Positions 10,980-60,018 are shown, counted from the first letter of the stretch. The stretch is 64,000 bases of DNA from an uncultured bacterium (GCA_965541585.1 CBEUCH010000015.1:22317-86316), one strand, 5' to 3'. Notes: generated by a model not told the origin, from the sequence alone. Made by a program: numbers and translations.

Positions 10980-11041
10980 TTTTCAGGTAATGGAAGCCAA
11001 GCGGCGGATTGAGATTCCTGCAGTGGTCGTTTACGAGCAGT

Positions 11042-11070
11042 AAAAAAGGGCTGCCGAAACAACCCCTTTT
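11042..11070. terminator. Probable bidirectional terminator
   Basis: AAAAAAGGG...CCCCTTTT hairpin after the 9846-10979 gene. Confidence 0.5.
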
Positions 11071-11159
11071 AACTTATACATCAAAACGCCTATATCCTAT
11101 CCCCCGGACTCAGCCGCCTGTGGCGGGATTTGTGCACGTGGTTGCACACCAACTACCTT

Positions 11160-11200
11160 ATTGCCCATAGATTGGAAGACTTGTCTTAGCGGCTGAGGGA
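11160..11200 (+). repeat. Intergenic ~41-bp repeat, copy 2
   Basis: Matches 9730-9770 with two mismatches. Confidence 0.9.
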
Positions 11201-11325
11201 TGGGGGTATACTCTCGCAAACGCCGAAAATCCTTGACATTTAAGTAGAATTGTGTATTCATATTAATGGACAGACGTAATTTTCATCTGTGATCGGCACT
11301 AGGATAAATACCTCGATGGGAGGAT

Positions 11326-12642
11326 ATGATGAAACTGGTTACGGTTTTTACGACGGTTATCGTAGTCATTGCCTTTGCTGCTGCGACGGCAACGATTATA
11401 AACGTTCCTGATGATTATCCCACCGTTCAGGAAGGCATAAATGCTTCCACCGACGGCGACACAGTCCTTGTGCAGCCGGGGACGTACGTGGAGAACGTCG
11501 TCTTCAACGGCCATAATATTGTTCTTGCGTCGTTGTTCTTGACCACAGGGGACGCATCCTACATATCCTCCACGATACTGGACGGTAACTCATCGGGGGC
11601 TGTAATTACGCTTACAGACGGGGAAGATAATTCAGCAATGATTATCGGCTTTACCATTACGAATGGAATCTCAGTTTTTGGCGGCGGTATTAATGCCTGG
11701 TTTACTTCTCCTACAATACTTCATAATATAATCAGAGGTAACAAAGGAACATGGTATGGGGGGGCGATCAGTCTTGAACAATCACCGGGTACGGCCATAG
11801 TACAATATAATGTTTTGACGAAAAATCAGGCTGAACTCGGAGGAGGACTGAGAGCCTCGTATGGCGATCCTTTTATCGGAAACAACCTCATTATTAATAA
11901 TTATGCGGAGGAATGGGGCGGCGGTATGTATGTAAACAACAACACGCCCCTAATTATCAATAATATTATTTCAGGCAATGAGGCGGATGAAATGGGAGGG
12001 GGATTAAGAACGGGAAATGCGTCACCCAATGTTGTAAATTGTATTTTTTATGGTAATTCTGCCCCCGACGGACCCGAGATTTCGCCCTGGGGTTCCCCGG
12101 TATTTTCATATTCGGATATACAGGGAGGATATGAGGGGGAGGGGAATATCGATGCCGATCCGCTCTTCCGTGATCCTGAAAACGGCGATTTTCATCTAAT
12201 GTCAATCGAATGCGGCGATCCCTCCGACTCTCCCTGCATCGACGCCGGCGATCCGTCTATCTTCGATTATCTGCTCGAATGTGATTGGGGCTTAGGAGGC
12301 CAGCGGAGCGATATGGGCGTCTACGGCGGCCAGGCCATCCCCACCGATATCAGGGAGGAGCATCCCCCGACAATTCCCGTGGCATACGGCCTCCCTCAGA
12401 ATTACCCCAATCCGTTTAATGCTTCAACCGTCATTCGATATAACCTACCCACAGCTTCCGATATAACCATCTCCATCTACGACATCCGCGGCCGCAAAGT
12501 TGAAACGCTGGTTCAGGGAGAACAGCAGGCCGGGTATCATCAGATTATCTGGGATGCCAGCGATCATTCCTCCGGCATGTATTTTTATAAGATTCAGGCG
12601 GGGAAATATGCTGAGACGAGGAAGATGGTGCTGTTGAAGTAA
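11326..12642 (+). CDS. Secreted right-handed beta-helix protein with PNPFN-type C-terminal sorting domain
   Basis: N-terminus closely similar to the 9846 gene (GINASTDGDTVLVQPGTYVEN); SPCIDAGDP; NYPNPFN...SGMYFYK...KMVLLK. Confidence 0.85.
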   Translation: MMKLVTVFTTVIVVIAFAAATATIINVPDDYPTVQEGINASTDGDTVLVQPGTYVENVVFNGHNIVLASLFLTTGDASYISSTILDGNSSGAVITLTDGEDNSAMIIGFTITNGISVFGGGINAWFTSPTILHNIIRGNKGTWYGGAISLEQSPGTAIVQYNVLTKNQAELGGGLRASYGDPFIGNNLIINNYAEEWGGGMYVNNNTPLIINNIISGNEADEMGGGLRTGNASPNVVNCIFYGNSAPDGPEISPWGSPVFSYSDIQGGYEGEGNIDADPLFRDPENGDFHLMSIECGDPSDSPCIDAGDPSIFDYLLECDWGLGGQRSDMGVYGGQAIPTDIREEHPPTIPVAYGLPQNYPNPFNASTVIRYNLPTASDITISIYDIRGRKVETLVQGEQQAGYHQIIWDASDHSSGMYFYKIQAGKYAETRKMVLLK

Positions 12643-13008: not shown

Positions 13009-13301
13009 CAGTCCTCCTTGTTGAGGATAAATATATGGATCCAGTAATATTATCGGCAGGATCAGATTGGCCTTAATTGGCCATACCCTTATTCAACCAA
13101 ATCCGATCTCCCGCTGACAGCCGCCTGTGGTAGATTCGCAGGCCTTCCTGGTTGACGGTCTGATTGATGTAGCGTTGGGTAGTGTTCGGATTGCTACTGC
13201 TTAAGAGGAATCTCGAATAAAGTTGATCGGCGGGCGTCTTCGTCTATCCCGCCTATGGCGGGATTGGTGCACGTGAACATACACGGATAACCGAAACGAA
13301 T

Positions 13302-14573
13302 CTATTTCAATTTCTTCTTTAGCTTCTCCGTTTTTTCTTCTATGAACTTTCTATTTTCCTCTGGAATATCGGCGGCTATTATCCATTCCTCGATATCGTC
13401 GTAAGACCACGTTAGAGCAATATCCTCTTTAAGAATCTCTTCAAGCTCTGCCTCCGCTTCCATTGTATCCTTACTTGAGAGTTTTTGGGCAATGCACTTT
13501 AGATAGAGTAAAACAGCTTTTTCTTTGGATTCTTTGGGTTGAATCATAGCTTTCTCTATTCTTCCAATAGCCAAATCGTGCTCTCCCCTAAAGATGAGCA
13601 ATTCGGCCATATTTTCATAAGCAATGATATTTCCAGGATCGAGTTCGATGGCTATATCGTAATCGGCTAAAGCCTTCTCGTATTTCTTCAGTCGCAAATA
13701 TGTAAGCCCCCTATTGTTGTATGGCTCGGACTTATTTGGATCGAGTTCGATGGCTATATCGTAATCGGCTAAAGCCTTCTCGTATTTCTTCAGTTGCGAA
13801 TATGTAAGCCCCCTATTGTAGTATGCTATCGCATTTTTTGGATCTTTTTCAATCGCTTTGCCATAATATTCATTGGCTTCTTTATAATTCCCCTTTAGAT
13901 ACTCACTGGTCCCTTTTAATTCCCAATCAATCGAAGTGTATTGTTCTTCGCGCTTAATTGATAGCAGCTTTTCCTCAAATTTCTCATATTTTTCGGACCG
14001 CTCTTCTGGTGATGGCTCTTTCATGGCAAGACTATCCTTCATTTGAAGTAACTCATCTTTCAATCGCGAATATTCTTCCCGCTCCTTTTCTAGTTTATTC
14101 AGTCTTTCGGTTAAAGAACTTTCATATTCCTCGGTTTTTTGTTCTGCAAATTTTTGAAAGATGTCTGCCCATGTTTTTTCCAATTCTTTTTCCGTAATTT
14201 CATTTACTTTCTCATTAATTTTATCCTTAATCCAGTTAACCATTGTTTTCGCGCCCAAAAACCTTAGAAGAAATGCAATAAAAACTAATACCAGACTTCC
14301 GCCCCAAAAATACAGATCTATTCTTTTTTCCAATTCCTTTGTCCTCAACTCAATCTCACTTTTCCGGGCGTTATCTCTGTATCCAATTTCGTTTCTAATT
14401 GCTTCAAGTTTCGTCTCGTTGTTTTTATTCTGTTGCTTTAACCGCTCCTCCAGCACTCTGATATCGGAACTGTCCTGTGCAGTAGACTTATCCGGAATTT
14501 GCGCTACTGATGTTGCGGCAAAAAGCATCAACATTGCCGCGGCCTTTACAAAGATCTTAAATAAAGTAGCCAT
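13302..14573 (-). CDS. Membrane-anchored coiled-coil and tetratricopeptide repeat protein
   Basis: Signal-like N-terminus, one TM segment, TPRs (AYYNRG...YEKALADYDIAIELDP twice); start codon uncertain. Confidence 0.8.
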   Translation of the reverse strand: MATLFKIFVKAAAMLMLFAATSVAQIPDKSTAQDSSDIRVLEERLKQQNKNNETKLEAIRNEIGYRDNARKSEIELRTKELEKRIDLYFWGGSLVLVFIAFLLRFLGAKTMVNWIKDKINEKVNEITEKELEKTWADIFQKFAEQKTEEYESSLTERLNKLEKEREEYSRLKDELLQMKDSLAMKEPSPEERSEKYEKFEEKLLSIKREEQYTSIDWELKGTSEYLKGNYKEANEYYGKAIEKDPKNAIAYYNRGLTYSQLKKYEKALADYDIAIELDPNKSEPYNNRGLTYLRLKKYEKALADYDIAIELDPGNIIAYENMAELLIFRGEHDLAIGRIEKAMIQPKESKEKAVLLYLKCIAQKLSSKDTMEAEAELEEILKEDIALTWSYDDIEEWIIAADIPEENRKFIEEKTEKLKKKLK

Positions 14574-18279: not shown

Positions 18280-19353
18280 TCAATAAGGAAGTTTTGCCAC
18301 CATGTCGGTCTTGTATTTTTCCGCAAGATGAGCGTATATTTCTGTGGTTTTGATGGAGGAATGACCCAATAGTTCCTTTATTGCGTATAGCGGCACTCCT
18401 GCCATCGCAAGATGTGAGGCATAGGAAAAACGTAGGGAATGGCAGCTAGCCCAGTCCAGGCCTATCGAGGAACAGGTCTTACTGATTTTCCGGCTTACTG
18501 TATCGGGTTTCCATTGTGGGAGTTCCTTTCCTTTTTCATCCCGGGAACCAAAAACTTTATTGTCTTTTCTCCTTTGAAGTGAACCAAGCATTTTCCCAAG
18601 ACCACTTTTTTTATCAAACCCAAGGTATCTATACCTTCTACTCTTCGAATTTGACGCCCTTATTGTAATCTGGCATTTATTGAAATCAATGTCATCCCAG
18701 GTTAATGATAAGGCCTCGCGAAGCCTAACGCCCGTCCATAAATAAAAATTCACAACATCTTGGAAAACAGTTCCTTCAAACGCTTCGCGTAACTTCTCAA
18801 TTTCGTCTACTTCAAGATACTTTGGTCGAGGCGCACCTTGGCTCCGTAGCATTTTGATCCTTCTAAAAGGGCTCGTTTCCATTAGCCCCCAGCTAAGAGC
18901 GGTATTAAATATTGCCTTAAGATGACGAAGCTCTAGATTTACCGTCGATTCTGAAATATGTGAGTTTTTTCTATTTGACGGCTGGCTGAGTCTGTGTCTA
19001 ACATAACCATCAACGAGGGCGCTATTGATTGTTTTCAATTCAACGTTTCCGATGTATTTCGCAAACAATCTCAATACTCTTTCTTCTCTGTTTAAAGTCG
19101 ATGGCCTCTTTACAAGACTGCAGTGATTTAAATAATCACGCATAAAATCTTCGAGTAGAATATTCTCAAATTGCCCTACTGTAGATTTGCCTTCAACAAG
19201 CTGGCTGCAAAACTTATGGTACTCTTTTTGAGCAGTCCGTTTATCAACTTCACCGATTGTTTTTAATTGATCTCTGCCATTCAATCTGTAACGAATTACC
19301 CACACAGATCTCCCCGTCCTGTAATTTCTTTTTTGCAATGAGGCCATCAACAC
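18280..19353 (-). CDS. Tyrosine recombinase / phage-type integrase
   Basis: TGVRLRE (Arg), HSLRFSYAS, LLGHSSIKTTEIY catalytic residues; N-terminal arm-binding-like region. Confidence 0.93.
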   Translation of the reverse strand: MLMASLQKRNYRTGRSVWVIRYRLNGRDQLKTIGEVDKRTAQKEYHKFCSQLVEGKSTVGQFENILLEDFMRDYLNHCSLVKRPSTLNREERVLRLFAKYIGNVELKTINSALVDGYVRHRLSQPSNRKNSHISESTVNLELRHLKAIFNTALSWGLMETSPFRRIKMLRSQGAPRPKYLEVDEIEKLREAFEGTVFQDVVNFYLWTGVRLREALSLTWDDIDFNKCQITIRASNSKSRRYRYLGFDKKSGLGKMLGSLQRRKDNKVFGSRDEKGKELPQWKPDTVSRKISKTCSSIGLDWASCHSLRFSYASHLAMAGVPLYAIKELLGHSSIKTTEIYAHLAEKYKTDMVAKLPY

Positions 19354-48660: not shown

Positions 48661-48999
48661 TTATTTTCTGCGGACCCTGGTTTTAAATATAACCTCCGCA
48701 ACCTCCCTAACCATCACAACATCATCAGCAGACTTCCGCTTCAATAGCTTCATCAAATCATCCAGAGCAAACTGAGCCTTCGTCTTCTTCTCCGGAAAAT
48801 CAAATAGTTCCTTCAGCTCGACCTTGAGAACCTTGGATATCCTGAACAAAGTGTCTACGGAGGCCGAACGCTTACCTTTTTCCAATAGAGCGATGAAATT
48901 AGTGCTCAAACCAGCCTTATCAGCCAAGCCCGATTGAGTTAATTTCAGGTTCTTCCGTAGCTGCCTGATTTTATTTCCAAGTAAAACGAGAACGTCCAT
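48661..48999 (-). CDS. XRE-family HTH regulator
   Basis: LGNKIRQLRKNLKLTQSGLADKAGLSTNFIALLEKG. Confidence 0.88.
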   Translation of the reverse strand: MDVLVLLGNKIRQLRKNLKLTQSGLADKAGLSTNFIALLEKGKRSASVDTLFRISKVLKVELKELFDFPEKKTKAQFALDDLMKLLKRKSADDVVMVREVAEVIFKTRVRRK

Positions 49000-49238
49000 A
49001 CGCTAATCCTCCGTAAACGTTGAAATAATAAATAGTTAGCTCGAAGGTAGCGAAATAGACAGATAGTTATAATAATGGATGATATAGGCATTATATATTG
49101 ACTAATAGTGTGATTTTGCTATATTGGGCCTGTGACCTGAAATTTAGCGGGTCCGTCAATTTGCAATTGGAAACGCATACATCGGGGCATTTACAAAGCA
49201 AAGAAGGAAACAAAAATCAATTATTCATGGGGGTTGTC

Positions 49239-51353
49239 ATGAGGGCTTTGATTATAGCAATGGTTAGCCTGTTTTGTATTTCTGAAGTCATTGCCGATGG
49301 GCCGTCATTTGGAGGAACACGGGTAATATTTTCTCGGAATAACGAAAATACGATGTTTGCCTCAATTAATGGCAACGCAAACGCCTATGGACTCTTCAAA
49401 ACCACGGATGGAGGAAACTCGTGGTATTTGCAAGCCAGCGAGCATGACGATCTCTTTGTAATAGCACCAAGCAACGCAAATTTAATTTATGGCTCAAACC
49501 ATAGGAGTACTGACGGCGGCGACACGTGGCAGGAATATGATGGGCAACCGATCATGGCGGTTCATCCTACTTACGGGAATACGTTGATAGGTATGTATGC
49601 TTTATTATATGGAGCAAGCTCATATAAGATCTCCACAAATGGCGGTGATAATTGGGAATCAAATACTATTCCAGGTTTTAATAGATATCCTTATTGCTCC
49701 AGTAGCAATGACGGTCTTTATTTACTCGTTACCAGCGACGGCATCTGGGAATACTATTTGTACTATTCTGATGATGGGTCAAACTGGATTCAAATAGGAG
49801 TTGAAATACCCATGACTACGAGTGCTTTCCCTCGATTGACTATTAATCCCTCAAATCCACAACATATCGCTATTATTTATGGACAGTATGTTTTATTTAG
49901 TACAGATCGTGGAAACACGTGGACGCAAAGTGACTATTTTTATCAGAACGTAATAAACATATATTGTGAGTCATTTTTGCAGCCGAACAGTACGACGTTT
50001 TTTGCTGGCACTTCTGATGGTTTATATAAAACCGATAATCTAGGTTCTTCGTGGCAATTTATTAGCTGTAAAGCGGGTAAAATTATGGACATTGATTATT
50101 TACCATCGTCCTCTAATATCGCGTTTGCAGCCGATCAAATAAATATTAGTACAGATAACGGAGCGAGTTGGAAAAATGTAGGTGTGGTTTATACTGGTTT
50201 CTCATATGATGTGCTTAATTCCTCCTATAATAACATATTCTGCAGCAACACCAATTATCTCCATAATGTAATGGCTTCTGATAACGATATTGATTGGTTC
50301 CCTGTGTTTGGCCAAGCCAGATCATTTAAATGCAACTCTAATGCATCCGCACTTTCAGCGCAAAGTGTCCAATATGATCATTATATTAGTTCAGACGGCG
50401 GGAATAGTTGGTCTGTTTTACCGGAACCATTATTTGATTTTTGGGCTATGTATCCTGCTTCTTCATCGATTCTTTACGGTTATGCATCGGTTGACGAAAT
50501 ATTCTGTATTTCTACAGATGGTGGGGAATCCTGGACCAATCGTCCAATTCCTTCATCCTCTTACATGTTTGATATCACTTCGAAATTATCCGATCCTTAT
50601 TCATTGTTCGTCCAGTGTGGGTATGATCTATATTTTACTAATGACGGTAGCATCAGTTGGAACATTATTACGCCTGAATTTGAGTATCATTCTTCTATTA
50701 GCGGTTTTTGCGTACAACAATCTGGCAATATACTATATGCGTTTGCTAGTTCTGATTTGGCTAAGTCAGCAGATGATGGATCATCATGGGATATTGTTTA
50801 TGATGATTATGCAGGTTATAGCTTTATGAGATTAGCTACACATCCAACGAATGGTGATATTATCTATGGAATAGGGCGGCATTCCCCAGATTACGTTGAT
50901 AGGCCTATTGTTTCATATGACGGAGGGGTAAGTTGGACGATGGCGTATCCGAATGAAGAGTTAGCTCCCGGCCCTAAGTTGTGCGTAGATCTGGCTTACC
51001 CAGATTTTGCATATTTCACTGGAGTTGACGGGATTATACGGTTGGATATGAGCGGATTTACAGATGTTTCGGATGGTGTATCTACACCGAGGGACCATGA
51101 ATTGATTTCAGTTTACCCTAATCCGTTCAATAGTTCCGCCATAGTAGATTATAATCTTCAGAAGGATTCCTTTGTAAAGATTGCCGTCTATGATATTCTT
51201 GGCCATAAATTAGAAACTTTAATAGCAAGAAAACAACCTGCAGGCAATCATAAAATAGTATGGAATGCGACAAATAAACCTTCTGGAATATATTTCATCA
51301 GAATTCAGGCTGGTGAATTCAGCGCAAACCGGAAGTTGTTACTTCTGAAATAG
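49239..51353 (+). CDS. Secreted BNR/VPS10-like beta-propeller protein with PNPFN-type C-terminal sorting domain
   Basis: Signal peptide MRALIIAMVSLFC; many S/TxDGGxxW repeats; YPNPFN...SGIYFIR...KLLLLK. Confidence 0.8.
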   Translation: MRALIIAMVSLFCISEVIADGPSFGGTRVIFSRNNENTMFASINGNANAYGLFKTTDGGNSWYLQASEHDDLFVIAPSNANLIYGSNHRSTDGGDTWQEYDGQPIMAVHPTYGNTLIGMYALLYGASSYKISTNGGDNWESNTIPGFNRYPYCSSSNDGLYLLVTSDGIWEYYLYYSDDGSNWIQIGVEIPMTTSAFPRLTINPSNPQHIAIIYGQYVLFSTDRGNTWTQSDYFYQNVINIYCESFLQPNSTTFFAGTSDGLYKTDNLGSSWQFISCKAGKIMDIDYLPSSSNIAFAADQINISTDNGASWKNVGVVYTGFSYDVLNSSYNNIFCSNTNYLHNVMASDNDIDWFPVFGQARSFKCNSNASALSAQSVQYDHYISSDGGNSWSVLPEPLFDFWAMYPASSSILYGYASVDEIFCISTDGGESWTNRPIPSSSYMFDITSKLSDPYSLFVQCGYDLYFTNDGSISWNIITPEFEYHSSISGFCVQQSGNILYAFASSDLAKSADDGSSWDIVYDDYAGYSFMRLATHPTNGDIIYGIGRHSPDYVDRPIVSYDGGVSWTMAYPNEELAPGPKLCVDLAYPDFAYFTGVDGIIRLDMSGFTDVSDGVSTPRDHELISVYPNPFNSSAIVDYNLQKDSFVKIAVYDILGHKLETLIARKQPAGNHKIVWNATNKPSGIYFIRIQAGEFSANRKLLLLK

Positions 51354-51376
51354 TCGATGTAAAAAAGAACTTGAAA

Positions 51377-51400
51377 GGGGAGCCCTTATTCCGGGCTCCC
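51377..51400. terminator. Hairpin between the convergent beta-propeller gene and the Ubl operon
   Basis: GGGAGCCC-ttattcc-GGGCTCCC. Confidence 0.7.
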
Positions 51401-51511
51401 ATCTTTCTTGTCGTCGCTTTCCTCTTCTTTATCCCGCAAAACAAGCTTTAGTATCTTCTCCACAAGCGCCCCCACAGATTCGGCCAGTTCCTGGGCTTCT
51501 TTTTCTTTCAT
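51386..51511 (-). CDS. 41-aa micro-ORF ending the Ubl operon
   Basis: MKEKEAQELAESVGALVEKILKLVLRDKEEESDDKKDGSPE; ATGA overlap with the preceding micro-ORF. Confidence 0.45.
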   Translation of the reverse strand: MKEKEAQELAESVGALVEKILKLVLRDKEEESDDKKDGSPE

Positions 51512-51585
51512 CTCAGCGTCCTACAGATCAGGAATCTTATCAATTCCGCCACCGCCGCCAGCAGCGCCTTTATTTTTCCCGTCAT
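51508..51585 (-). CDS. 25-aa micro-ORF coupled to E1
   Basis: MTGKIKALLAAVAELIRFLICRTLR; ATGA overlap with the E1 stop; AGGAGGGAG SD inside the E1 3' end. Confidence 0.45.
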   Translation of the reverse strand: MTGKIKALLAAVAELIRFLICRTLR

Positions 51586-52253
51586 ATATGAACTCCCTCC
51601 TGGAGCATTATTAGAGTCTTGAGGTCCATGGTGATCGCCGGCTCAATCCAGTCACCATTAGCAAAGGTCGCCACCTGGCGACAGACCAAGGCTGCCACCG
51701 GCAAAACGGTATAGATTATTGACCGCGCTGTGCATCTATCCTGTAACGCTTCCGTTTCGTCTACCAAGGTGGCTTCATAGGCTTTAAGGCTGGAAGGATC
51801 GCCCGGAGATGCAGTGTAGACCTGAATTACGTGAGCTGCCATGCGAGGATCAATCAGGAGCTTAACCTTTCTGTGAGACACTACAGAATTCCAAATGCGC
51901 GACCGCACATCCATTGAGTCAACGCAGGAAATTACAATATCGGCTTCCAGCTTCTGCTTAATAAATGGCCGTGTCAGTGTGTTTACCTGGATATCACTGT
52001 CAAATTGGACAAGTATCTCGGCACAGGCCACAACTTTTTTCTTCCCCAGATCTTCTTGATAGTAGAACTGGTTCGGAAGATTCTCTGGATTTACAGTATC
52101 AGGATCCATCAGGATAAGATGCCGAACCCCCATCTTACACAAAGACAAGGCAGTGAAGGATCCAACGGCTCCGCAGCCAATGATCGTCACGTATAGGTTT
52201 GCAATGCGCTCCTGATCCACAAGTTCCTGCTGGCGTATATATTTGTCTTCCAT
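51582..52253 (-). CDS. ThiF/E1-like ubiquitin-like activating enzyme
   Basis: IIGCGAVGS, DPDTVNPENLPNQ, SCVDS, IDPRM; candidate catalytic Cys in DRCTARS. Confidence 0.88.
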   Translation of the reverse strand: MEDKYIRQQELVDQERIANLYVTIIGCGAVGSFTALSLCKMGVRHLILMDPDTVNPENLPNQFYYQEDLGKKKVVACAEILVQFDSDIQVNTLTRPFIKQKLEADIVISCVDSMDVRSRIWNSVVSHRKVKLLIDPRMAAHVIQVYTASPGDPSSLKAYEATLVDETEALQDRCTARSIIYTVLPVAALVCRQVATFANGDWIEPAITMDLKTLIMLQEGVHI

Positions 52254-52261
52254 GGGTTCTC

Positions 52262-52939
52262 CTAGTAATCATCGAAAAGAGGCTGGCCGGATAGCTCCTC
52301 GTAATCGTACATATTGATGGACCCCTCTTCGAACGCCTCTTCCAGCTCCTCTTCTGATTTGAAATCCACGGTTGGTTGAAATCGTTTCGGAAACTTACTG
52401 ATCTTTGTCCATCTTTTGACCTTGGCCTCGAATTCCGTCGAATAAAGTTCCTCAAGCTCCTTTGAGCATGTGCAGTGGATCTGAGTGGGCACCTTATTAA
52501 GGGTCACCCGAAACGGATTGTAGATGTCTATTCGAGTAAGTAGATCTCCCCGTAGGTTCGTGACAATTGACAGCGAATACGAATCATTAGCCAGCATTGA
52601 ACAGCAGTCCTCATCAATACTTGACCAGAACGTTTTCATGCTGGAATGGCTGTGGATCCAACAGCGCAACTGTGAGGTGTCGATACCGTCAGCAGCCAGT
52701 TGGATCATTAGATTTGCGACGGCTTTATCATCCAACTCTACGTCTGCTCCGCTAACCTTTTGATCAAGCAGGTAGATCTCGGAAACCAGAAGAGCGGTGA
52801 TCCTGCCTTCATTTTTAACCTCATCAATCAATCCCAAACAGCTTACCTCATCCTGGCCAGCCATCTTGACCCAATGCCGAAGCTTCGCCCAGGCTTCGCC
52901 ATCAACGAAAACCGCGATATCAAGTGGTGACTGTTTCAT
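52262..52939 (-). CDS. JAB/MPN+ metallopeptidase
   Basis: Glu in DEVS and HSHSSMKTFWSSID (HxHx7Sx2D JAMM motif); AGGAG SD before ATG 52939. Confidence 0.9.
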   Translation of the reverse strand: MKQSPLDIAVFVDGEAWAKLRHWVKMAGQDEVSCLGLIDEVKNEGRITALLVSEIYLLDQKVSGADVELDDKAVANLMIQLAADGIDTSQLRCWIHSHSSMKTFWSSIDEDCCSMLANDSYSLSIVTNLRGDLLTRIDIYNPFRVTLNKVPTQIHCTCSKELEELYSTEFEAKVKRWTKISKFPKRFQPTVDFKSEEELEEAFEEGSINMYDYEELSGQPLFDDY

Positions 52940-54131
52940 TGGCGACTCCTCGGTATTTACAGTGTTCGATGTTGCAGGATGCGCAGCTTTCCTCATTAAC
53001 TTCATGACAGGATTCCTCTTTCCGGTAGAACGGGCAGGTACTGAATGAACATGTCATGCATCCCAGAGGATTCTCATCATGGCATTCCTGCAAAAGCTCA
53101 TCTCCAGGTTCACATCGATCACTGCACATCACGCATTTTGTCAAATCCATATTCTCCTGGCATTCTTCCAGAGCCCCGTCGAAGTATGGACATCCCCCGT
53201 CACTGCACTGCAAGCAGGTTTGACCATAGCTTCCACTTTCCCTACATCGTTCATACTCGTTGGATTCATCGCAATAATCTGGATCATTCCAATATTGAAT
53301 TTTTTGGTAGGGGTCGTCTTCGTTGTATTCGTGAATGAATTTATGCAGAAGTTCCAGGGCTCCGTAGATCTCAAATTCTCCGAGAAGTTTCGTTAAACCA
53401 GCCGAGACATTCCCGAGGCAAATCTCTCCATTGTCGTTGACATGAGGATGGGGATAGTTATTGACGGGATTGGTCAAGTTGCTCAATATCACTTTGCCCC
53501 TCGATAATTCCAGTTCGATCAGCAGTACTCCAATCTCGTATTTTTCGTCAGCATACCAGATATCAACCTGGTGTGTCTTGGCCCATACGTGGCGATCATC
53601 AAACCGAATCGATTGGTAGAGGCCTGGTAGCAGCTTCTTGATGTTGGTATATTCACCGATGATCTTCCTGCCCAGTGGAATACTGGGTTTTTCAAGTTGG
53701 ACCAGCAGGTGTTTGTCCAGGTTCCGTTTCCTGGCCATATCGAACATCTGTCTGCTCAGATCATCCAGAGTATACTCTGCCTGTTGGATTGACTGCTTGA
53801 GGGAGTCCTTTCTTTCGACGACTCCTGAAAGGACCAGTTCCTTCAACTGGTCCCTTTTCTTTTGATGGTATTGCCTGGCCAATACGGGGATCTCTTCTTC
53901 AAGGGTCTTGGAGATGCTTTCTAGACCGTTTTCAGCATGAGGATATGATATGATTAGTCGGAAATTCTCTGAACCGATCTTTGCGTCTTTGTCAACAAGC
54001 AGGATCTGAATACCTTCGAATGGGTTGGTGGGCTGGTCGGTATCGGGCAGATGTATTGCTTCTATCGGTATATTATGCGCTTGGGAATGAAATCTGACGA
54101 GCTCCTGAATTTTCTCCCAGATCAATAACAT
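52920..54131 (-). CDS. Prokaryotic E2-like protein with N-terminal coiled coil and C-terminal Cys-rich repeats
   Basis: HPHVNDNGEICLG (E2 HPH/N...ICL motif); four C-x7-9-CxxC-x3-4-C units at the C-terminus. Confidence 0.8.
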   Translation of the reverse strand: MLLIWEKIQELVRFHSQAHNIPIEAIHLPDTDQPTNPFEGIQILLVDKDAKIGSENFRLIISYPHAENGLESISKTLEEEIPVLARQYHQKKRDQLKELVLSGVVERKDSLKQSIQQAEYTLDDLSRQMFDMARKRNLDKHLLVQLEKPSIPLGRKIIGEYTNIKKLLPGLYQSIRFDDRHVWAKTHQVDIWYADEKYEIGVLLIELELSRGKVILSNLTNPVNNYPHPHVNDNGEICLGNVSAGLTKLLGEFEIYGALELLHKFIHEYNEDDPYQKIQYWNDPDYCDESNEYERCRESGSYGQTCLQCSDGGCPYFDGALEECQENMDLTKCVMCSDRCEPGDELLQECHDENPLGCMTCSFSTCPFYRKEESCHEVNEESCASCNIEHCKYRGVANETVTT

Positions 54132-54331
54132 CCCCCTTTGATATGTGGATTCATGGTGAGCACATCGCCATCCTGAACGTGCGATGTGTCAAAAGCGGGA
54201 TGCCCGTTCAGCGTGATCGTCATGTGATCGCGGTTGAACCCTGAAGCCTGAATGACATGCTCAACGGTCGATCCCTCTTGTACCTCGACCTCCTTGGCCG
54301 CTTCCCCAAGCTTCAAAACCTTGACCTTCAT
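54122..54331 (-). CDS. Ubiquitin-like beta-grasp protein ending GG-CY
   Basis: 69 aa, MKVKVLKLG...LNG...VQDGDVL...IKGGCY; AAAGGAG SD. Confidence 0.88.
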   Translation of the reverse strand: MKVKVLKLGEAAKEVEVQEGSTVEHVIQASGFNRDHMTITLNGHPAFDTSHVQDGDVLTMNPHIKGGCY

Positions 54332-54670
54332 AAATGCTCCTTTCTTTGGAATGAAAATGCCTTGCGGGCGCAAGGCTGACTAGCTAATACCAAGTTACTT
54401 ATACCATTAAAGGGATTACGGTTTATATGATAAATGGTCAGATTACCCCTTGACACCTCAAAAAACCATGCTATCTTACTTTTAAGAGCTTAAATAGGCG
54501 CGATAGTTGCAACATGACGGTAACCTAAAGGATTGTAAAAGGATTATTATTGAAAACAAATCAAAATATTAGACAATGACTAGAATGCGCGTTATTATTA
54601 ATCGTGAGATCCAAATGATCATTTACAAAGATGAAACCGAAATTTAATAGATACGGAATATGGCAATTGA

Positions 54671-55903
54671 ATGATATCAAGATTTATTGACAAAACAGAT
54701 TGGCGACATTCTATAAGTCCCGAGAAGAAAAGGTGGATACCTGTGCACAGTTGGTTCCTACTGAATCACAGTTATGGGAAGGAGCTTGTTTCGAATATTA
54801 TTAGCGAAATTCAGATCGAAGAAAGTGCAAGAATCCTTGATCCATTTTGTGGAAGCGGAACCACACCTTTAGTATGTAAGGAAAGGAATATTCAATCAGT
54901 TGGAATTGATTTGATGCCATTGTCTATATTGGTGTCAAGGACAAAATGTAATGATTATAATCCGAGTAAACTAAATATTTTTCTTGATCAGATAATATCG
55001 AAGAAAAATAAAAGGCAAAATTATCCTCTCCCTGACATAAGCATTATTAAGAGAGCATTTACTCCACTTGCATGGCAATCTATACAATCGTTAGTGCAAA
55101 CAATAAGAGAAATCTGTAGAGGGAAATACAGGGATTTCTTTATTACTTCTTTATTATCAATAGTAAAAGACTTCGGAGCATATTCTAATGATGGAGGTTT
55201 CCCGAGATTAACTTCTAAGCCAAAATATCCAGTTGGTCATCTGAGCAAATCCTTTTATGATAGATCTGCACGGATGATAGTTGATGTCGGACAATATCCA
55301 ATCAAATCCTCAAAACTACCTATAATTTTATCTGCGGATTCCCGATTTATATTACCAAGATTTCGAAAATTCGATGCGATAATATGTTCGCCCCCGTATC
55401 CCAACAGACACGATTACAGTCGCGTTTACGCTGTTGAACTCGGAGCCGTCTTTTATAAATCTAATAATGAGCTCAAACGCCTCCGAAAAAGTATTTTTAG
55501 ATCTCACATCGAGGTCTTGCCTGACGATGCGAACTACATAGTTGACAAACTAGGTATATTAAAAGAAGTCCTTAACAGCGTGCTCACAAATCCTCGATCT
55601 GATAGAAGACTTTACAATATGCTACTTGCTTATTTTCAAGACGTAGAGCTAATGCTAAAGAATATGTGGCGAGCATTGAAGCCGGACGCCACAGCTGTTG
55701 TCGTCCTAGGTAACGTTCGCTTCGCCGGAATGGTTATACCCGTGGATGAAATAGTTGCTAGTATAAGCAATGAAATTGGATTTTACGACCAGCAAATATA
55801 TATTGTTCGCTTTAGGGGAAATAGTCCTCAACAGATGCGGGATTACGGAAGAATTCCCATTCGAGAATCAATATTGTTTTTGAGAAAAGGCCAAAGACGA
55901 TGA
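54671..55903 (+). CDS. DNA amino-methyltransferase (SPPY, probably N4-cytosine)
   Basis: LDPFCGSGTT (motif I) and CSPPYPN (motif IV). Confidence 0.88.
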   Translation: MISRFIDKTDWRHSISPEKKRWIPVHSWFLLNHSYGKELVSNIISEIQIEESARILDPFCGSGTTPLVCKERNIQSVGIDLMPLSILVSRTKCNDYNPSKLNIFLDQIISKKNKRQNYPLPDISIIKRAFTPLAWQSIQSLVQTIREICRGKYRDFFITSLLSIVKDFGAYSNDGGFPRLTSKPKYPVGHLSKSFYDRSARMIVDVGQYPIKSSKLPIILSADSRFILPRFRKFDAIICSPPYPNRHDYSRVYAVELGAVFYKSNNELKRLRKSIFRSHIEVLPDDANYIVDKLGILKEVLNSVLTNPRSDRRLYNMLLAYFQDVELMLKNMWRALKPDATAVVVLGNVRFAGMVIPVDEIVASISNEIGFYDQQIYIVRFRGNSPQQMRDYGRIPIRESILFLRKGQRR

Positions 55904-56853
55904 GTCTTAAGCATCCCAGGGCAGATAATCTTATTCTAATTCGCAATTTTATATTTGCGATATACGAAGGTATAGTAACCAAATTAGAAGATTTTAAGTT
56001 AATAAAGCCCGCCTGGAGTAGAACAAGACACTATCATTATTGGAGCGCAATTAGAGATTTGGGGTTTGCCTATTTGAAAAAAGATACTATTGTATTAACC
56101 AAGCTCGGAAAAGAACTTGCCTTATTGGTAGATCCTTTCACAATTAATTCCGTTGAGAATCTACGATCCCCAGAAATTGAGGTATTCAAAAATGCTTTCG
56201 AAGAATATAAGCCCTTACAAGAATTTCTTACATATTTTATTTCAAATGGTGAATCATTTTCCAACTTTGATCATTGGCTGAAATACTCTGGTTTCATCAT
56301 TATGACATTAAAAGACTCACACACGGGTGATGCAAAAAAATCAGCAGAATTGAAAATTCCCACTGGCAGGACTGTTCCATTAAATCCATCTCAAGTAAGA
56401 TCAATGCTATGGTCTTTGAAGCGTTGGTGCAAGCAAATTCATATTTTGGACGAAATATATTTAGAAAGTAAAACGAAATTTGGCATCAATCCCTCTATTC
56501 CTCAGAGGATATTGTTTCCGATAAAGATTAAATTGAGCGAAATGTCTCTAGAACGTTTTAAGATACTCCTTTTTTACATTATTAAAAAAATAGTAAGGGA
56601 GAGTTATATTCCTATCCCAACTTTATCATATCACTTTTGCACAAAGTATTATGCATCTTTACAAGATTTCCATCATAAATTAACAGATTTGTATAAGGAT
56701 GATCCCTTCTACTACTATCTTGAGATAAGTAGCCTTGCTGATTTCGATAAGAGAACTGGGATAATAACGGGTTATTCAAATTACCCTCAGGTTGACGGCT
56801 ATTACAGAAGTCATCTTATTTTGAGGAATAAGGAGGTTTTAGGTGAAGAATGA
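55900..56853 (+). CDS. Hypothetical protein, possible winged-helix DNA-binding
   Basis: ATGA overlap with the MTase stop; DLGFA...IVLTKLG wing-like motif. Confidence 0.6.
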   Translation: MSLKHPRADNLILIRNFIFAIYEGIVTKLEDFKLIKPAWSRTRHYHYWSAIRDLGFAYLKKDTIVLTKLGKELALLVDPFTINSVENLRSPEIEVFKNAFEEYKPLQEFLTYFISNGESFSNFDHWLKYSGFIIMTLKDSHTGDAKKSAELKIPTGRTVPLNPSQVRSMLWSLKRWCKQIHILDEIYLESKTKFGINPSIPQRILFPIKIKLSEMSLERFKILLFYIIKKIVRESYIPIPTLSYHFCTKYYASLQDFHHKLTDLYKDDPFYYYLEISSLADFDKRTGIITGYSNYPQVDGYYRSHLILRNKEVLGEE

Positions 56854-58216
56854 TCACAATTTGAAAAGCAGCCATCCAGGTAAAGTAGATCAGGAGTTAG
56901 GGTACTCTCGCTTTGGATTAGCAGCCAATCCATTTCCTATGTCTGCTATTACTATGGGTATTCACAGCACGCCACTTCCTATGTATATGCCTGAGGGAGT
57001 AAAAATAGTGAATGATTTCATTTTTAGGACATATGAAGAACGCGAGTTTGCCATCTTATTAATAGCAGGAGATTACGGTTTTGGCAAAACATATGCACTT
57101 CGATGGATAGAAAAAGAAATTAACGGCAGATATTCTCAGCGGAATAGCGTTGCAGCGTGTGCTATCTATCTAGAAAATCCGCTAACCTCGCCTCGCGAAC
57201 TAATCGCTTCAATGATATCTCATTTTGGTACAAATAAATTCTTAACAATGATATGGTTAATTGTCGCACGATCTTTTCGGAAGGATTATGAAAAAGAAGG
57301 CAATAGCTTCCTTATTCGTTTTAAATCAGAAGAGAAGGGCCTTTTTGACAAGGATCTGATAGTTGAGTTGTTAAATGAAGAGCTAATAGAAAATCCAATG
57401 ATTTGGATGAGAACACTGCTTGACACTAGTTATAAAGCGAAGCTGATTAATCTGGATGAATTCTCGCAATATTGCTATGACGTATTACAAGACGTATTTG
57501 GAAGCAATAATTTTACTAAAGATCTTTGCTCATTCCAACCTAAGGACGGATTTTTCGATCATGTTAGTAAATGGTCAGATCTCGTAGAGCAAAAATTGTC
57601 ACAAAGAAAATCATACGGTATCCCGGATGAAAGGGCGTTATTAAATAATATTTTAGAGGTATTTAGAAGAAATGGATTTATCCGCGTTTATTTATTAATA
57701 GATGAATTTGAGGACATTGGATATTATCTTAAACCAGAACTTCTTACAAAATATCTACGCATTTTGCGTGATGCAATTGATAATGCGCAGGAGAAGATCA
57801 GCTTAGTAATAGCACTAAAACCCCAGGCAGTAAACGCTATTCAAAATGCTTATCCAGGTTTTTTTGAAAGAATCTCACATTATTACCGTTTAGACCTGGA
57901 AGGAATTATGCAAGAAGCCGTTGAGAAATTTATCGTAGGTTATCTACAAACAGAAAGGTCCCCAAAATTCGCGAGGCCAGATATCTTTCCATTTACGCAG
58001 GATGGAATACACGAAATATACCTTCATGCACGTCCAAATCCTCGTATAATATTACAAACTTGTTCAGAATTGCTCTATCTGGCAGTTACCAATCGCGATT
58101 GTGAGGTTATTGATGCAGCATTTGTAAAGAAATTTTACTCATTCGCAAGATCTAGGATTTGGTCACGGGATGTTTCTATAACGAGAGCAGTTGAAAAAAG
58201 AATTGATGAGGAATAA
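56843..58216 (+). CDS. P-loop AAA-type ATPase (BrxD/DUF2791-like)
   Basis: GLAANPF, GDYGFGKT Walker A, LLIDEFE Walker B, FPFT, NPR. Confidence 0.75.
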   Translation: MKNDHNLKSSHPGKVDQELGYSRFGLAANPFPMSAITMGIHSTPLPMYMPEGVKIVNDFIFRTYEEREFAILLIAGDYGFGKTYALRWIEKEINGRYSQRNSVAACAIYLENPLTSPRELIASMISHFGTNKFLTMIWLIVARSFRKDYEKEGNSFLIRFKSEEKGLFDKDLIVELLNEELIENPMIWMRTLLDTSYKAKLINLDEFSQYCYDVLQDVFGSNNFTKDLCSFQPKDGFFDHVSKWSDLVEQKLSQRKSYGIPDERALLNNILEVFRRNGFIRVYLLIDEFEDIGYYLKPELLTKYLRILRDAIDNAQEKISLVIALKPQAVNAIQNAYPGFFERISHYYRLDLEGIMQEAVEKFIVGYLQTERSPKFARPDIFPFTQDGIHEIYLHARPNPRIILQTCSELLYLAVTNRDCEVIDAAFVKKFYSFARSRIWSRDVSITRAVEKRIDEE

Positions 58217-58217
58217 T

Positions 58218-59021
58218 ATGGCTGTTAGCGAAATAATTGCATTTGTTTCAACTTCGGTTGAAGTTGCTGATTTAGTTAATAGATTATTACCCAAGCTTTA
58301 CGGGAAGCACGTAGATGCTAAATCCGTTGATTTGGAAGATGTACAAATGAATTATAATAGTTATGCTAAGGTTTTAAATTATTACGCATATTTCAGATTT
58401 CCTAGTGATAATGGTCGAAGAAAGTTCATATTCTGGTCAAAGAAGAATAGGAAAATTATCTATTATTTGAACTTAAGGTGTAATCTTGGTTTTCTTAATA
58501 TCCAATCCACAAATACATTTCAAAGTGTAAAAAACCGTTCTTTTCCATTGCTTGAGCTACGACCTACAATTAAATCAATATATAGAAATAACGCACAAAA
58601 TGGGGATAGAATTCAGGTAGATATACCAGTTAGAATTGACCTAGATAGTGAGATTAAATTTAATTGGAATAAGTCTGATCCGACTCACGAGATAATTGAG
58701 TTATACAATCCTTTACAAATTGATGTGGATGAGTATGTTATTTCGTTTCCAATCGATCCGAATTTAGAGGTCCTAAGGAGAATCGTTGTTAAGACGAACG
58801 GCCAAGATGTTCCTCTTGGTTTTAAATTAATATGGAATTCAAATAAGTGGATACCTTCGGAAAGGGCTAAAGAAATCAATATTTCAAGTGATGCATGGAG
58901 AGATGGCAATGATACTCAGAAAGACCATAAAATATGGTTTACCGTTGATTTAAAAAGTAATTCAAGCATGGAAATTCATGTCTACTATGGAGAAAGAAAT
59001 GAAAGCGAAGTTAAAGGATAG
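58218..59021 (+). CDS. Hypothetical beta-rich protein
   Basis: ATG 1 bp after the ATPase stop; no motif recognised. Confidence 0.65.
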   Translation: MAVSEIIAFVSTSVEVADLVNRLLPKLYGKHVDAKSVDLEDVQMNYNSYAKVLNYYAYFRFPSDNGRRKFIFWSKKNRKIIYYLNLRCNLGFLNIQSTNTFQSVKNRSFPLLELRPTIKSIYRNNAQNGDRIQVDIPVRIDLDSEIKFNWNKSDPTHEIIELYNPLQIDVDEYVISFPIDPNLEVLRRIVVKTNGQDVPLGFKLIWNSNKWIPSERAKEINISSDAWRDGNDTQKDHKIWFTVDLKSNSSMEIHVYYGERNESEVKG

Positions 59022-60018
59022 AATCGCTGGTTGTTTGATTGGGGGAGCTATTGGAGACGCTATGGGAATGCCTTTCGAGGAAATTCCAAAAAGCAAGATT
59101 GAAAAAATATATGGAAGGGACCCTGTAGAGAGTTTTATAGATGGTGAGGAATATAAAATGCGTCATGCTATAGAAGCGGGATCTGTTACTGATGACACTG
59201 AATTAGTGTTAGCGACAACCCAGAGTATAGTGAATTGCTCTGAAATCAATATCAAGAATATAATGGATCATTTACGTCAATGGTATGAAAGGAAGTTAAC
59301 ATGGCTCCGCGGTGATCTTGACCAAAGGAACATTGGCTTTACAACCACCCAAGCCATAATGAGATATATAAATGGATATTCTTATAAAGAGACTGGTTTG
59401 GAGAAAACCAGCTGTGGTCCAGTAATCCGGATTTCGCCCATTGCAGTTGCTACTTATAATGATTATAGAAACTTAAAAGCCGCGGTCTTTGCTGCTGCTC
59501 GATTAACACATAATAATCCCACAAAACCGCTTGCAGAAGAAAGCGCTTTTTGCTTTGCTTTATGTATTCGTTATATACTTTTGAATAAGCCCATTCCTAA
59601 TATGCTTAGGTATGTTTTGTCATTGGTTAAGGTCAGAGAATTAAAGCAGGCTATCAACAAAATCAGTTTTGGTTTAAAGGAAAATTGGAGCTCGGAAAAT
59701 GCAGTAAAGGAGCTTGGTTGCGGATCTTCATATATTGCGACGGAAGTCGTATCGCTCGCGATATATAATTTTCTAAATAATTGTGAGGATTTTAGGAGTG
59801 CTGTGCTAGCGTCAGCTAATGCACGAAGCTCTTCAGGTTGCGATACGGATTGTATAGCATCTCTTACTGGAGCTCTATCGGGGTGTTATTTGACCGCGAA
59901 AAGGATACCCCGAGAATGGAAAAGTGACGTTGAATATGCTTCCAATATAGAAGGATTTTCTTCACAATTATCTAATCTGGTTTTGGAATCGAACGGCAAA
60001 ACTAAAGTAGCTATTTAG
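58999..60018 (+). CDS. ADP-ribosylglycohydrolase (DraG/ARH family)
   Basis: GAIGDAMG, TDDT, RISP, LTH, DTDCIASLTGAL. Confidence 0.9.
   Translation: MKAKLKDRIAGCLIGGAIGDAMGMPFEEIPKSKIEKIYGRDPVESFIDGEEYKMRHAIEAGSVTDDTELVLATTQSIVNCSEINIKNIMDHLRQWYERKLTWLRGDLDQRNIGFTTTQAIMRYINGYSYKETGLEKTSCGPVIRISPIAVATYNDYRNLKAAVFAAARLTHNNPTKPLAEESAFCFALCIRYILLNKPIPNMLRYVLSLVKVRELKQAINKISFGLKENWSSENAVKELGCGSSYIATEVVSLAIYNFLNNCEDFRSAVLASANARSSSGCDTDCIASLTGALSGCYLTAKRIPREWKSDVEYASNIEGFSSQLSNLVLESNGKTKVAI

Follow-up and report, generated by a model that had tools for sequence, protein, structure and literature searches.

Does a set of four adjacent genes on one strand of a 64,000-nucleotide stretch of DNA from an uncultured bacterium (GCA_965541585.1 CBEUCH010000015.1:22317-86316; hereafter the window, from whose first nucleotide all its coordinates are counted) encode a system that attaches a ubiquitin-like (Ubl) protein to other proteins, and if so, is it one of the systems already described, and whom does it serve? 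Conjugation of Ubl proteins in bacteria, by Cap2 of the cyclic-oligonucleotide-based antiphage signalling system (CBASS), by Bil and by Bub, was shown to be real and directed against phages only recently. Inspection of the open reading frame (ORF) listing and the raw sequence of the window located four core genes, all on the minus strand, for a Ubl, an E2 conjugating enzyme, a JAB peptidase and an E1 activating enzyme. The locus very probably encodes a true Ubl-protein conjugation cascade. With a probability of roughly two in three it represents a new family common to phages and mobile elements that acts here as conflict or defence cargo. The features on which this reading depends are the following.

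54122..54331, minus strand: Ubl precursor of 69 amino acids, a single beta-grasp domain, with the ribosome-binding site (RBS) AAAGGAG and the C-terminus ...HIKGG-CY-stop
54131-54136, minus strand: GG codons of the Ubl
54125-54130, minus strand: CY tail of the Ubl
52920..54131, minus strand: E2-like conjugating enzyme of 403 amino acids, its ATG overlapping the end of the Ubl gene by 10 nt
53418..53450, minus strand: E2 active-site motif H228-P229-H230-x7-C238, from alignments of 44 and 149 members
52959..53246, minus strand: Cys-rich tail of the E2, four C-x7-9-C-x2-C-x3-4-C repeats with 16 Cys, presumed to bind metal
52262..52939, minus strand: JAB/JAMM metallopeptidase of 225 amino acids from an RBS-backed ATG, in a 20-nt overlap with the end of the E2 gene
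52613-52654, minus strand: HxH-x7-S-x2-D motif of the JAB, the JAMM zinc site
51582..52253, minus strand: minimal single-domain ThiF-type E1 of 223 amino acids, after an 8-nt gap from the JAB gene
52161-52178, minus strand: GxGxxG nucleotide-binding motif of the E1 (GCGAVGS)
51732-51734, minus strand: codon of the invariant Cys174 of the E1

The longest ORF for the JAB begins at 53005, and the RBS-backed ATG is at 52939. These coordinates agree with the initial annotation of the window, which had described four linked minus-strand genes with overlaps of 10 and 20 nt and then an 8-nt gap.

Four proteins of a predicted conjugation cascade

The E2-like protein consists of an N-terminal alpha/beta domain, a long helical hairpin, a UBC core (approximately residues 150-285) and the Cys-rich tail, and its active-site motif reads YPHPHVNDNGEICLGN, as had been quoted in the initial annotation. 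A word-indexed search found 28 homologues of about 400 amino acids that are 50-100% identical to it, none with a Pfam domain, and an alignment of 25 of these keeps HPHV, CLGN and all 16 Cys of the tail either without exception or in at least 90% of the sequences. The family is much larger than these 28 suggest: a profile search over 1.84 billion representative proteins returned 2,076 representatives at E<=1e-3, 514 at 1e-10 and 55 at 1e-30. H228, P229, H230, C238 and G240 are invariant across 44 diverse members; across 149 members the Pro, Cys and Gly are invariant, and both His and the Asn that follows are at least 90% conserved. The resulting HPH-x7-C-x-GN motif has His in place of the Asn of the classical HPN. 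Classical E2s, including UbcH5, have HPN-x7-C, with the same spacing.

Sequence libraries do not recognize this protein. The E2 has no match at E<=1 in Pfam (UQ_con included), NCBIfam or PADLOC and none at E<=0.001 in PHROGs, a search of the protein Atlas limited to named clusters gave no usable match, and among the 150 distant relatives listed, the 60 that were scanned have no Pfam match above the curated cut-off. Against the PDB, the single sequence gave nothing significant (UBC at E 0.43) and the profile gave mostly coiled-coil matches, with UBE2L3 at E 0.6-1. A model of the full-length protein has a predicted local distance difference test (pLDDT) score of 66, below 50 in the Cys tail, and no Foldseek match at E<=1e-3, with E2 and UEV matches below that threshold. 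The core alone (residues 145-305, modelled with AlphaFold2 from the 149-sequence alignment) has a pLDDT of 90.7 and a predicted template modelling score of 0.83, and its 15 Foldseek matches at E<=1e-3 are all canonical E2s, among them UbcH7 at 1.5e-4; all 50 Foldseek rows listed are E2 enzymes, including UbcH10, UbcH8, Ubc13 and UbcH5. VIA, an aligner independent of Foldseek, gave Z-scores that reached 7.7, over 117-127 residues; UBC, UEV or RWD folds make up nearly all of its best 50 matches. The predicted core thus shows what defines the UBC/E2 superfamily, a UBC fold with a Cys eight residues past an HPN-type motif, and the protein was concluded to be, by prediction, an active-type E2 of canonical fold. 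In distant and viral members the Cys tail varies or is missing, which would fit an accessory that chooses targets or binds metal. A ferredoxin-type 4Fe-4S site was considered for it and dropped on reading the motif, which is CxxCx4CP and not CxxCxxCxxxCP.

The JAB has the zinc site that defines JAMM/MPN+ peptidases (E...HxH-x7-S-x2-D), here E31...H96-S-H98-x7-S106-x2-D109, and E31, H96, H98, S106 and D109 are invariant in ten of ten JAB sequences from bacterial and viral loci. The single sequence has no match at E<=1 in Pfam, NCBIfam or PADLOC, none at E<=0.001 in PHROGs, and no significant match in the PDB (RPN11 at 0.17). The JAB profile matches the Rpn11-like protein of Caldiarchaeum (6fjv) at 3.2e-9, yeast RPN11 at 7.6e-8 and human PSMD14 at approximately 1e-5, followed by AMSH at approximately 2e-3 and Pyrococcus JAMM1 at 0.24; no solved Bil chain is among its 44 PDB matches at E<=1.

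The E1 belongs to the ThiF/MoeB/E1 superfamily by its ThiF domain (PF00899, residues 13-193, 1.7e-29, 103.1 bits against a cut-off of 28.1), its GxGxxG and its conserved Asp. In ten sequences G26, G28 and G31 of the GxGxxG are invariant, as are D50, K73, D112, R117 and C174, a set that includes the residues for ATP and Mg; the alignment also keeps N58, Q62 and Cys-Thr at 174-175. The E1 profile matches the adenylation domains of Uba1, Uba6 and Uba7 at approximately 1e-19, ThiF at 2e-17, MoeB at 4e-15 and BubCD at 1.4e-10; UBA5 and MccB were also matched, and no solved Bil chain is among the 60 PDB matches listed. Relatives have 217-243 amino acids, and neither Pfam nor the alignment of the E1 reveals a rhodanese domain or any second domain. 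Of the 32 PADLOC models that the E1 matches, the 25 listed are all Cap2-type E1-E2 proteins, matched in the adenylation part only.

The Ubl scores 23.0 bits against Pfam ThiS, a weak match next to the cut-off of 22.5, and matches SAMP2 at 1.7e-5; the best PDB matches of its profile are SAMP2 (5lda_B, 3.1e-8) and PF1061 (5.5e-8), then MoaD and ThiS. G67 is invariant among the relatives aligned. The residues that follow GG vary from none to seven over all relatives: CY, QS, QN, RR, HY or LIALGKD in genome loci, SL or nothing in phage loci, and one to four varied residues in metagenome loci. Three closely related metagenome loci (L038 4821-6122, L039 1442-2743 and L079 2624-3925) encode Ubl and E2 as one in-frame fusion (...VKGG-SGLSRDLLQFYAQ...), which implies cleavage after GG. 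Because the tails vary and these three loci fuse the Ubl to the E2, processing of the tail by the JAB is likely, and the proposal of the initial annotation that the JAB removes CY to expose GG fits both observations. BilC of Type II Bil cleaves its Ubl after Gly97 (excerpts of PMC10557695), and the sulfur carrier QbsE, which ends GG-CF, is processed by a JAMM peptidase as CxnE is by CxnF (excerpts of PMC5925218). A variable tail next to an invariant JAMM peptidase is the pattern seen in Type II Bil and in sulfur carriers. Because the Ubl ends in K-GG, trypsin should leave the standard di-Gly remnant on its targets, and existing K-GG proteomics could find them.

The proposed mechanism is drawn, step by step, from homology and conserved residues. 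The Rpn11-type JAMM peptidase would remove CY past Gly67 of the SAMP2/ThiS-like Ubl; the single-domain ThiF-type E1 would adenylate Gly67 and hold the Ubl as a thioester on Cys174; the Ubl would be transferred to the invariant Cys238 of the canonical-fold E2; and the E2 would conjugate it to amines of targets without an E3, the targets probably being chosen by its lineage-variable N-terminal domain, helical hairpin and 16-Cys metal-binding tail. The JAB could also reverse the conjugates. All four protein assignments of the initial annotation withstood this analysis: the 69-amino-acid Ubl ending GG-CY is ThiS/SAMP2-like, the E2 with HPHV...ICLG has a predicted UBC fold and a catalytic-type Cys conserved across the family, the JAB peptidase with an intact JAMM motif has invariant zinc-site residues and an Rpn11-like profile, and the compact ThiF/E1 is a single ThiF domain.

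Recurrence in genomes, phages and metagenomes

The four genes, followed by two micro-ORFs named sA and sB, keep the order Ubl-E2-JAB-E1-sA-sB in four loci from genome collections, among them Zixibacteria and one metagenome-assembled genome labelled Gammaproteobacteria. Nucleotide similarity to these loci extends from about 30 nt before the Ubl start to sB or just past it. The source genome has one copy of the operon. The E2 is sparsely distributed: of 285 genomes of the phylum 6 have it (5 among the 198 with a completeness of at least 90% and no more than 5% contamination), as does 1 of 13 genomes of the family, but neither of the two other genomes of the genus does. A decayed second copy is found in genome G245 (contig C121, L011/L014), in which the E2 lacks its UBC core (residues ~162-305) and the reading frame of the JAB is broken in two; Ubl, E1, sA, sB and a linked helix-turn-helix (HTH) gene are kept.

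Viral contigs searched with the A1, P0038 and P0070 queries yielded no related locus; a back-translated E2 motif (YN...PY..IE.W) then succeeded, and the phage and metagenome loci described here were found with it. Five phage contigs of IMG/VR, 17.7-191 kb in length, all have E2-like, JAB and E1 genes in this order, and in two of them a Ubl is detectable upstream. The neighbours of the module, assigned by PHROGs, are NrdD, polynucleotide kinase, RNA ligase, single-stranded DNA-binding protein, HNH and a Lon-like protease. The protease is encoded on a 152-kb phage contig (L018), two small genes past the E1; it is an 843-amino-acid ATP-dependent enzyme (9910-12441; phrog_4871, 1.4e-253) and hints at tagging coupled to proteolysis.

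In metagenomes the motif gave 81 stretches, of which 80 loci were examined; 54 were E2-positive and 26 without an E2-like ORF were set aside as chance matches. The JAB follows the E2 in all 41 loci with at least 700 nt downstream, the E1 is present in 29 of 30 with at least 1,500 nt downstream, and of 29 loci whose upstream flank covers at least 300 nt, 19 have a detected Ubl there, apart from the three in which it is fused to the E2. The flanks of eight sampled loci contain Rad52, Mu Gam, DNA ligase, HNH and methylase, NAD-salvage enzymes, a toxin-immunity pair and cargo genes of the type IX secretion system (T9SS). In one relative (L024, 6134-7501) an ATP-dependent DNA ligase with a WGR domain stands between JAB and E1, with DUF932 and Mu Gam nearby; in another (L048, 6973-9423) genes for NAPRTase and NAD synthase lie directly past the E1. 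NAD salvage of this kind is a phage counter-defence trait. The recurrence of the block in genomes, phage contigs and metagenomes implies that the arrangement is more than chance.

In the protein Atlas the E2 is nearest to two unnamed clusters, 73% and 100% viral and rich in Uroviricota. Searches by tblastn found no E2 relative in deposited phage genomes (window E2 and one viral E2 as queries) or in plasmids (window E2). Cultured Bacteroidota phages of the FpV4-like and crAss-like groups encode a JAMM protein and an E1 that are annotated as hypothetical or as 'thiamine biosynthesis protein'; examples are Flavobacterium phage FpV4 (L101, NC_041872.1, 63878-66948) and Bacteroides phage PhiCrAssBcn1 (L102, OQ221536.1, 83704-87318). 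The JAB and E1 profiles match these phage proteins at 1e-10 to 4e-38, and 76 phage records match the E1 query. Upstream of the pair are proteins of approximately 420-445 amino acids, homologous to one another (E 1e-9), with an HSH...CxG motif. The HSH...CxG protein, which the E2 profile does not match, could be a very divergent E2; the JAB-E1 pair that follows it sits in replication modules.

Known systems and rival explanations

Family definitions were taken from excerpts of PMC10557695, PMC11601603, PMC1779556 (Table 1, rows 6a-6e) and the Ledvina and Hör preprints. Bub (Type I/II, formerly 6E/DUF6527) resembles the locus as a cascade of E1, E2, Ubl and peptidase, and three metagenome relatives fuse the Ubl to the E2 as BubAB does. 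However, the serine protease DUF6527 (BubE) of Bub operons (PMC11601603) was not found by Pfam among the operon proteins or their neighbours, and in place of the fused enzymes of Bub there are four separate genes here, with no JAB-E1 or E2-E1 fusion among the metagenome relatives. The solved BubB E2 ranks 50 in VIA with a Z-score of 5.4, against 7.7 for canonical E2s, and BubCD matches the E1 profile at 1.4e-10 against approximately 1e-19 for Uba1. PRTRC is represented by 36.5 bits of the E1 on TIGR03736 (PRTRC_ThiF), whose cut-off is 144.75, and no other PRTRC model of NCBIfam matches any of the four proteins. In CBASS Cap2/Cap3 (6b) and in 6a the E2 and E1 are fused, whereas they are separate here; the 6A-MBL Cap2 model of NCBIfam (NF058523) is likewise far below its cut-off, at 45.4 bits against 320, and the Pfam scan of 35 window ORFs found no CD-NTase or MBL among the operon neighbours.

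The eukaryote-like ubiquitin operon of 'Candidatus Caldiarchaeum subterraneum' supplies the best solved match of the JAB (Rpn11-like, 3.2e-9), and the E2 core is near the canonical fold with HP(N/H)-x7-C. In contrast to Caldiarchaeum-type Ub/E1/E2/RING/Rpn11 sets, the Ubl here has a sequence like that of SAMP2/ThiS and unlike that of ubiquitin, the E1 is of minimal size, a Cys-rich tail fused to the E2 is found in place of a separate RING E3, and the family is carried for the most part by phages and mobile elements. Archaeal SAMPylation (SAMP2, UbaA, JAMM1) shares a SAMP2-like Ubl, a ThiF-type E1 and a JAMM peptidase acting on the Ubl C-terminus. SAMPylation is not known to need an E2, whereas a conserved E2 is present in every operon of the family described here, and Pyrococcus JAMM1 is distant from the JAB profile (E 0.24).

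The order Ubl-E2-DUB-E1 as separate genes, in which DUB denotes the deubiquitinase, is that of Bil (PMC10557695), as had been pointed out in the initial annotation, and the same four roles, a short tail after Gly and, here, defence-island-like surroundings add to the likeness. The operon might therefore be a divergent member of Type I/II BilABCD (classes 6d, with a question mark, and 6c of Iyer et al. 2006) overlooked by profile libraries; in Type II Bil the DUB also pre-processes a short post-Gly tail (PMC10557695), and 78% of the Ubls have one beta-grasp domain (PMC11601603). We regard this as very improbable, because Type I BilA has two fused Ub-like domains in the manner of ISG15 (10.1101/2023.09.04.556158; PMC11601603) and the Ubl here is a single SAMP2/ThiS-like domain of 69 amino acids; because Type II Bil has a CEHH-type E2 (Cys, Glu, His, His) and an E1 with inactive and active adenylation domains and an inserted CYS domain (PMC10557695), in contrast to the HPH-x7-C that is invariant across this family, the large extra domains of its E2 and its E1 of one ThiF domain; and because PADLOC, in a release whose coverage of Bil is unverified, matches neither Ubl nor E2 nor JAB and the listed PDB matches of JAB and E1 include no Bil chain, the nearest matches being Rpn11, Uba1 and canonical E2s. 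BilC is nearest to AMSH and archaeal JAMM according to its describers, whereas the JAB here is nearest to Rpn11, and the two micro-ORFs are an extra beyond the Bil gene set. A pathway in which the Ubl serves as a ThiS/MoaD-type thiocarboxylate for a cofactor, tRNA or natural product, with the JAMM peptidase merely unmasking GG, would account for the ThiS/SAMP2/MoaD-like Ubl and the ThiF-type E1; in the systems QbsCDE, CxnE/CxnF and CysO/Mec+ a JAMM peptidase is likewise encoded next to a small ThiS/MoaD-like protein that continues past its GG, and removal of a two-residue tail has precedent in QbsD/QbsE and CxnF/CxnE (excerpts of PMC5925218). Those systems have no E2 and are accompanied by a rhodanese-bearing E1 and biosynthetic clusters, none of which are seen here: the E1 lacks a rhodanese domain, and no rhodanese or other sulfurtransferase, ThiG/ThiH, MoaE, biosynthetic enzyme or cluster was found among the 35 ORFs or in the related loci examined. 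Nor does the window contain thiamine or molybdopterin genes among those ORFs, scanned from 13.3 to 63.8 kb, which is as the initial annotation had it. The E2 with its invariant Cys in every operon separates the system from sulfur carriers, and the residence of the family in phage genomes is a further point; this explanation is considered slightly less probable still than membership of Bil. Bil I, Bil II, Bub, PRTRC and 6a/6b are thus each defined by features that, when tested for, were lacking at the locus, whose JAB and E2 resemble the classical archaeal/eukaryotic set more than the solved bacterial ones, with a Ubl that resembles SAMP2. The literature yielded no description of the family or of a phage Ubl-E2-JAB-E1 module, although supplementary tables on Bil and Bub might list members, and a survey of jumbo phages (PMC7824862) uses 'ubiquitin' twice and never mentions E1-like, E2-like, Ubl or JAB. 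The suggestion of the initial annotation that this is a distinct, possibly undescribed subtype is supported by these comparisons.

The main rival accepts the conjugation cascade and disputes its beneficiary: it would serve the phage or mobile element by tagging host or viral proteins for takeover, disarming of immunity, proteolysis or assembly, and the copy in the window would be carried-over element cargo with the same job. All five IMG/VR matches are phage contigs with the module among early or nucleotide-metabolism genes, the Lon-like protease and the NAD-salvage genes lie beside it in L018 and L048, the nearest Atlas clusters are largely viral, and the Flavobacterium and crAss-like phages place the JAB-E1 pair and its HSH...CxG protein in replication modules. 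On the other side, the neighbours in the window are restriction-modification and defence candidates and not structural or replication modules of a phage, and phages carry defence or exclusion systems too, so that residence in phages leaves the direction of action undecided. A phage-serving role is rated as unlikely but by no means negligible. The order common to large uncultured tailed phages and mobile islands makes the family look like a weapon in conflicts between phages, mobile elements and hosts, and because the operon sits among restriction and defence-candidate genes in the window, its most likely function here is that of defence or exclusion cargo against incoming phages, like Bil. The initial annotation had left the choice between defence and the element's own lifecycle; both roles are still live, and the phage-borne family makes defence one of two.

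Several points weigh against conflict or defence cargo of a new family. Many relatives are in phage genomes, amid replication and nucleotide-metabolism genes, a context for which service to the phage is at least as good an explanation as defence of the host. The thioester, the conjugates and the phenotype are, at this locus, predictions from the genes. The sequence of the E2 alone is not significantly similar to any solved E2, the template modelling scores of its core are approximately 0.5 and the VIA Z-scores are below 8, no fold is assigned to the Cys tail or to residues 1-65, and metal binding and target choice by the tail are guesses. PADLOC v2.0.0, in which the presence of Bil models is unverified, gave zero matches for Ubl, E2 and JAB. 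The integrase of the putative island is 33 kb from the operon, and an HTH gene downstream of the operon is common to relatives in two genomes, which implies a neighbourhood that is partly syntenic and not freely mobile.

Operon organization, surroundings and implications

The best explanation of the locus is a single transcription unit that comprises a leader hairpin, Ubl, E2, JAB, E1, sA, sB and a terminator. Its remaining features are:

54398..54406, minus strand: conserved -10-like box TGGTATAAG, upstream of the leader, with an inferred promoter role
54359..54376, minus strand: leader hairpin of 7 bp followed by a T-run, from a terminator scan, between the -10-like box and the RBS
51508..51585, minus strand: micro-ORF sA, 25 amino acids, its start in an ATGA overlap with the E1 stop
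51386..51511, minus strand: micro-ORF sB, 41 amino acids, its start in an ATGA overlap with the sA stop
51378..51400, no strand assigned: GC-rich hairpin (GGGAGCCC...GGGCTCCC) that overlaps the sB stop and is shared with a convergent T9SS cargo gene

The two micro-ORFs, the conserved leader hairpin and the largely phage-borne family were overlooked in the initial annotation. Its extent for the system, 51386..54376, does cover the four genes, and its lower limit of 51386 falls at the stop codon of sB, a sixth gene that was not mentioned there. The ATGA overlaps couple sA and sB translationally to the genes upstream. sA was found in five loci with K6, E14, R17, L19 and C21 conserved and is less conserved than sB; codon position 3 has the most nucleotide differences (138) and position 2 has the fewest (48). 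sB has a helical N-terminal part of 25 amino acids, 17 of which do not vary across six loci, and a charged, variable tail; its 96 synonymous against 45 non-synonymous codon differences, with 121 of 174 nucleotide differences at position 3, imply a real, constrained protein. By these substitution patterns both micro-ORFs appear to be under purifying selection. They are absent from the 80 metagenome loci examined, which implies that they are specific to the Zixibacteria-type subclade, and they are predicted to be, probably, regulators or adaptors. The proposal that sA and sB are the missing C-terminal part of a split E1 was dropped, phage E1s being equally short without them, as was a ubiquitin-interacting motif in sB, for which the spacing does not fit.

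Upstream of the Ubl, the GGTATAAG/GGCATAAG block is kept in six of seven aligned regions although their flanks differ. The leader hairpin is kept in six of six aligned loci, and four of its seven pairs have changes on both sides in this small sample; Rfam has no match within 51300-54700. The hairpin looks like a terminator or attenuator, and because of this resemblance the operon may be off by default. At the other end, the GC-rich hairpin at 51378..51400 is the operon terminator; the terminator scan scored it on the plus strand, and on the minus strand its T-run is interrupted (TTTCAAGTTCTTTTTT). In three loci the end of the operon stands tail-to-tail, about 30 nt apart, with a T9SS-sorted cargo gene (window 49098-51353, plus strand; L003 10725-11042; L004 10770-12110). 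The cargo bodies are unlike, Sortilin/BNR in the window and beta-helix in L004, and the nucleotide similarity to L003 extends into the end of the cargo gene that encodes the sorting domain.

An XRE-type HTH gene (48661-48999, minus strand) lies downstream of the operon on the same strand. A whole-genome search found orthologues 72% and 81% identical to it beside the operon in two other genomes, and a direct BLASTP comparison with the L004 copy (13205-13555) gave 73% identity; in L003 a different HTH gene is divergent, upstream of the Ubl. The XRE-type protein may be a regulator of the conjugation system.

The surroundings of the operon in the window are defence-island-like, the island being putative and the window stopping at the contig end. 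GC content is approximately 0.50 in the first 10 kb and 0.36-0.47 after that. The Pfam scan of the 35 ORFs identified a tyrosine integrase (18280-19353), a CARF-AAA+ protein, a D5-type primase, a Type I restriction-modification system, an AAA_13 ATPase, a RecD-like helicase, the HTH gene and the T9SS cargo gene and, past the operon, a DNA methylase, an AAA_22 ATPase and an ADP-ribosylglycohydrolase. These last three belong to a run of five plus-strand genes (54671-60018) divergent from the operon, in the order N6_N4 DNA methylase, protein of 317 amino acids with no assignment, AAA_22 ATPase, protein of 276 amino acids with no assignment and ADP-ribosylglycohydrolase. Because their reading frames overlap, this run may be another defence-type unit.

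A wider reading, which is tentative and somewhat doubtful, is that ubiquitin machinery of the classical type is widespread, though unrecognized, in the tailed phages of bacteria, where it would serve without an E3 as a tagging weapon against hosts and other viruses, its parts being an E2 of canonical fold whose motif is HPN-like, a JAMM peptidase of the Rpn11 type, an E1 of one domain and a SAMP2-like tag made as a precursor or as a Ubl-E2 fusion; that islands such as the one in the window borrowed it; and that in this subclade the two micro-proteins and a leader attenuator keep it off until it is needed. If this is true, the family, and not Bil or Bub, would be the closest viral or bacterial relative of the eukaryotic pair of E2 and Rpn11. 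On the preferred reading of the locus as conflict or defence cargo, it would define a further family of Ubl conjugation, the E2 of which is invisible to Pfam, NCBIfam, PADLOC and PHROGs, which resides mainly in uncultured phages and the enzymes of which are closer to the classical eukaryotic/archaeal set than those of known bacterial systems. The family raises the question of whether phages run ubiquitin-like tagging of their own, and against which targets; the possibly related JAB-E1 arrays known from phages in culture, both Flavobacterium and crAss-like ones, might serve as a laboratory system in which to ask it.

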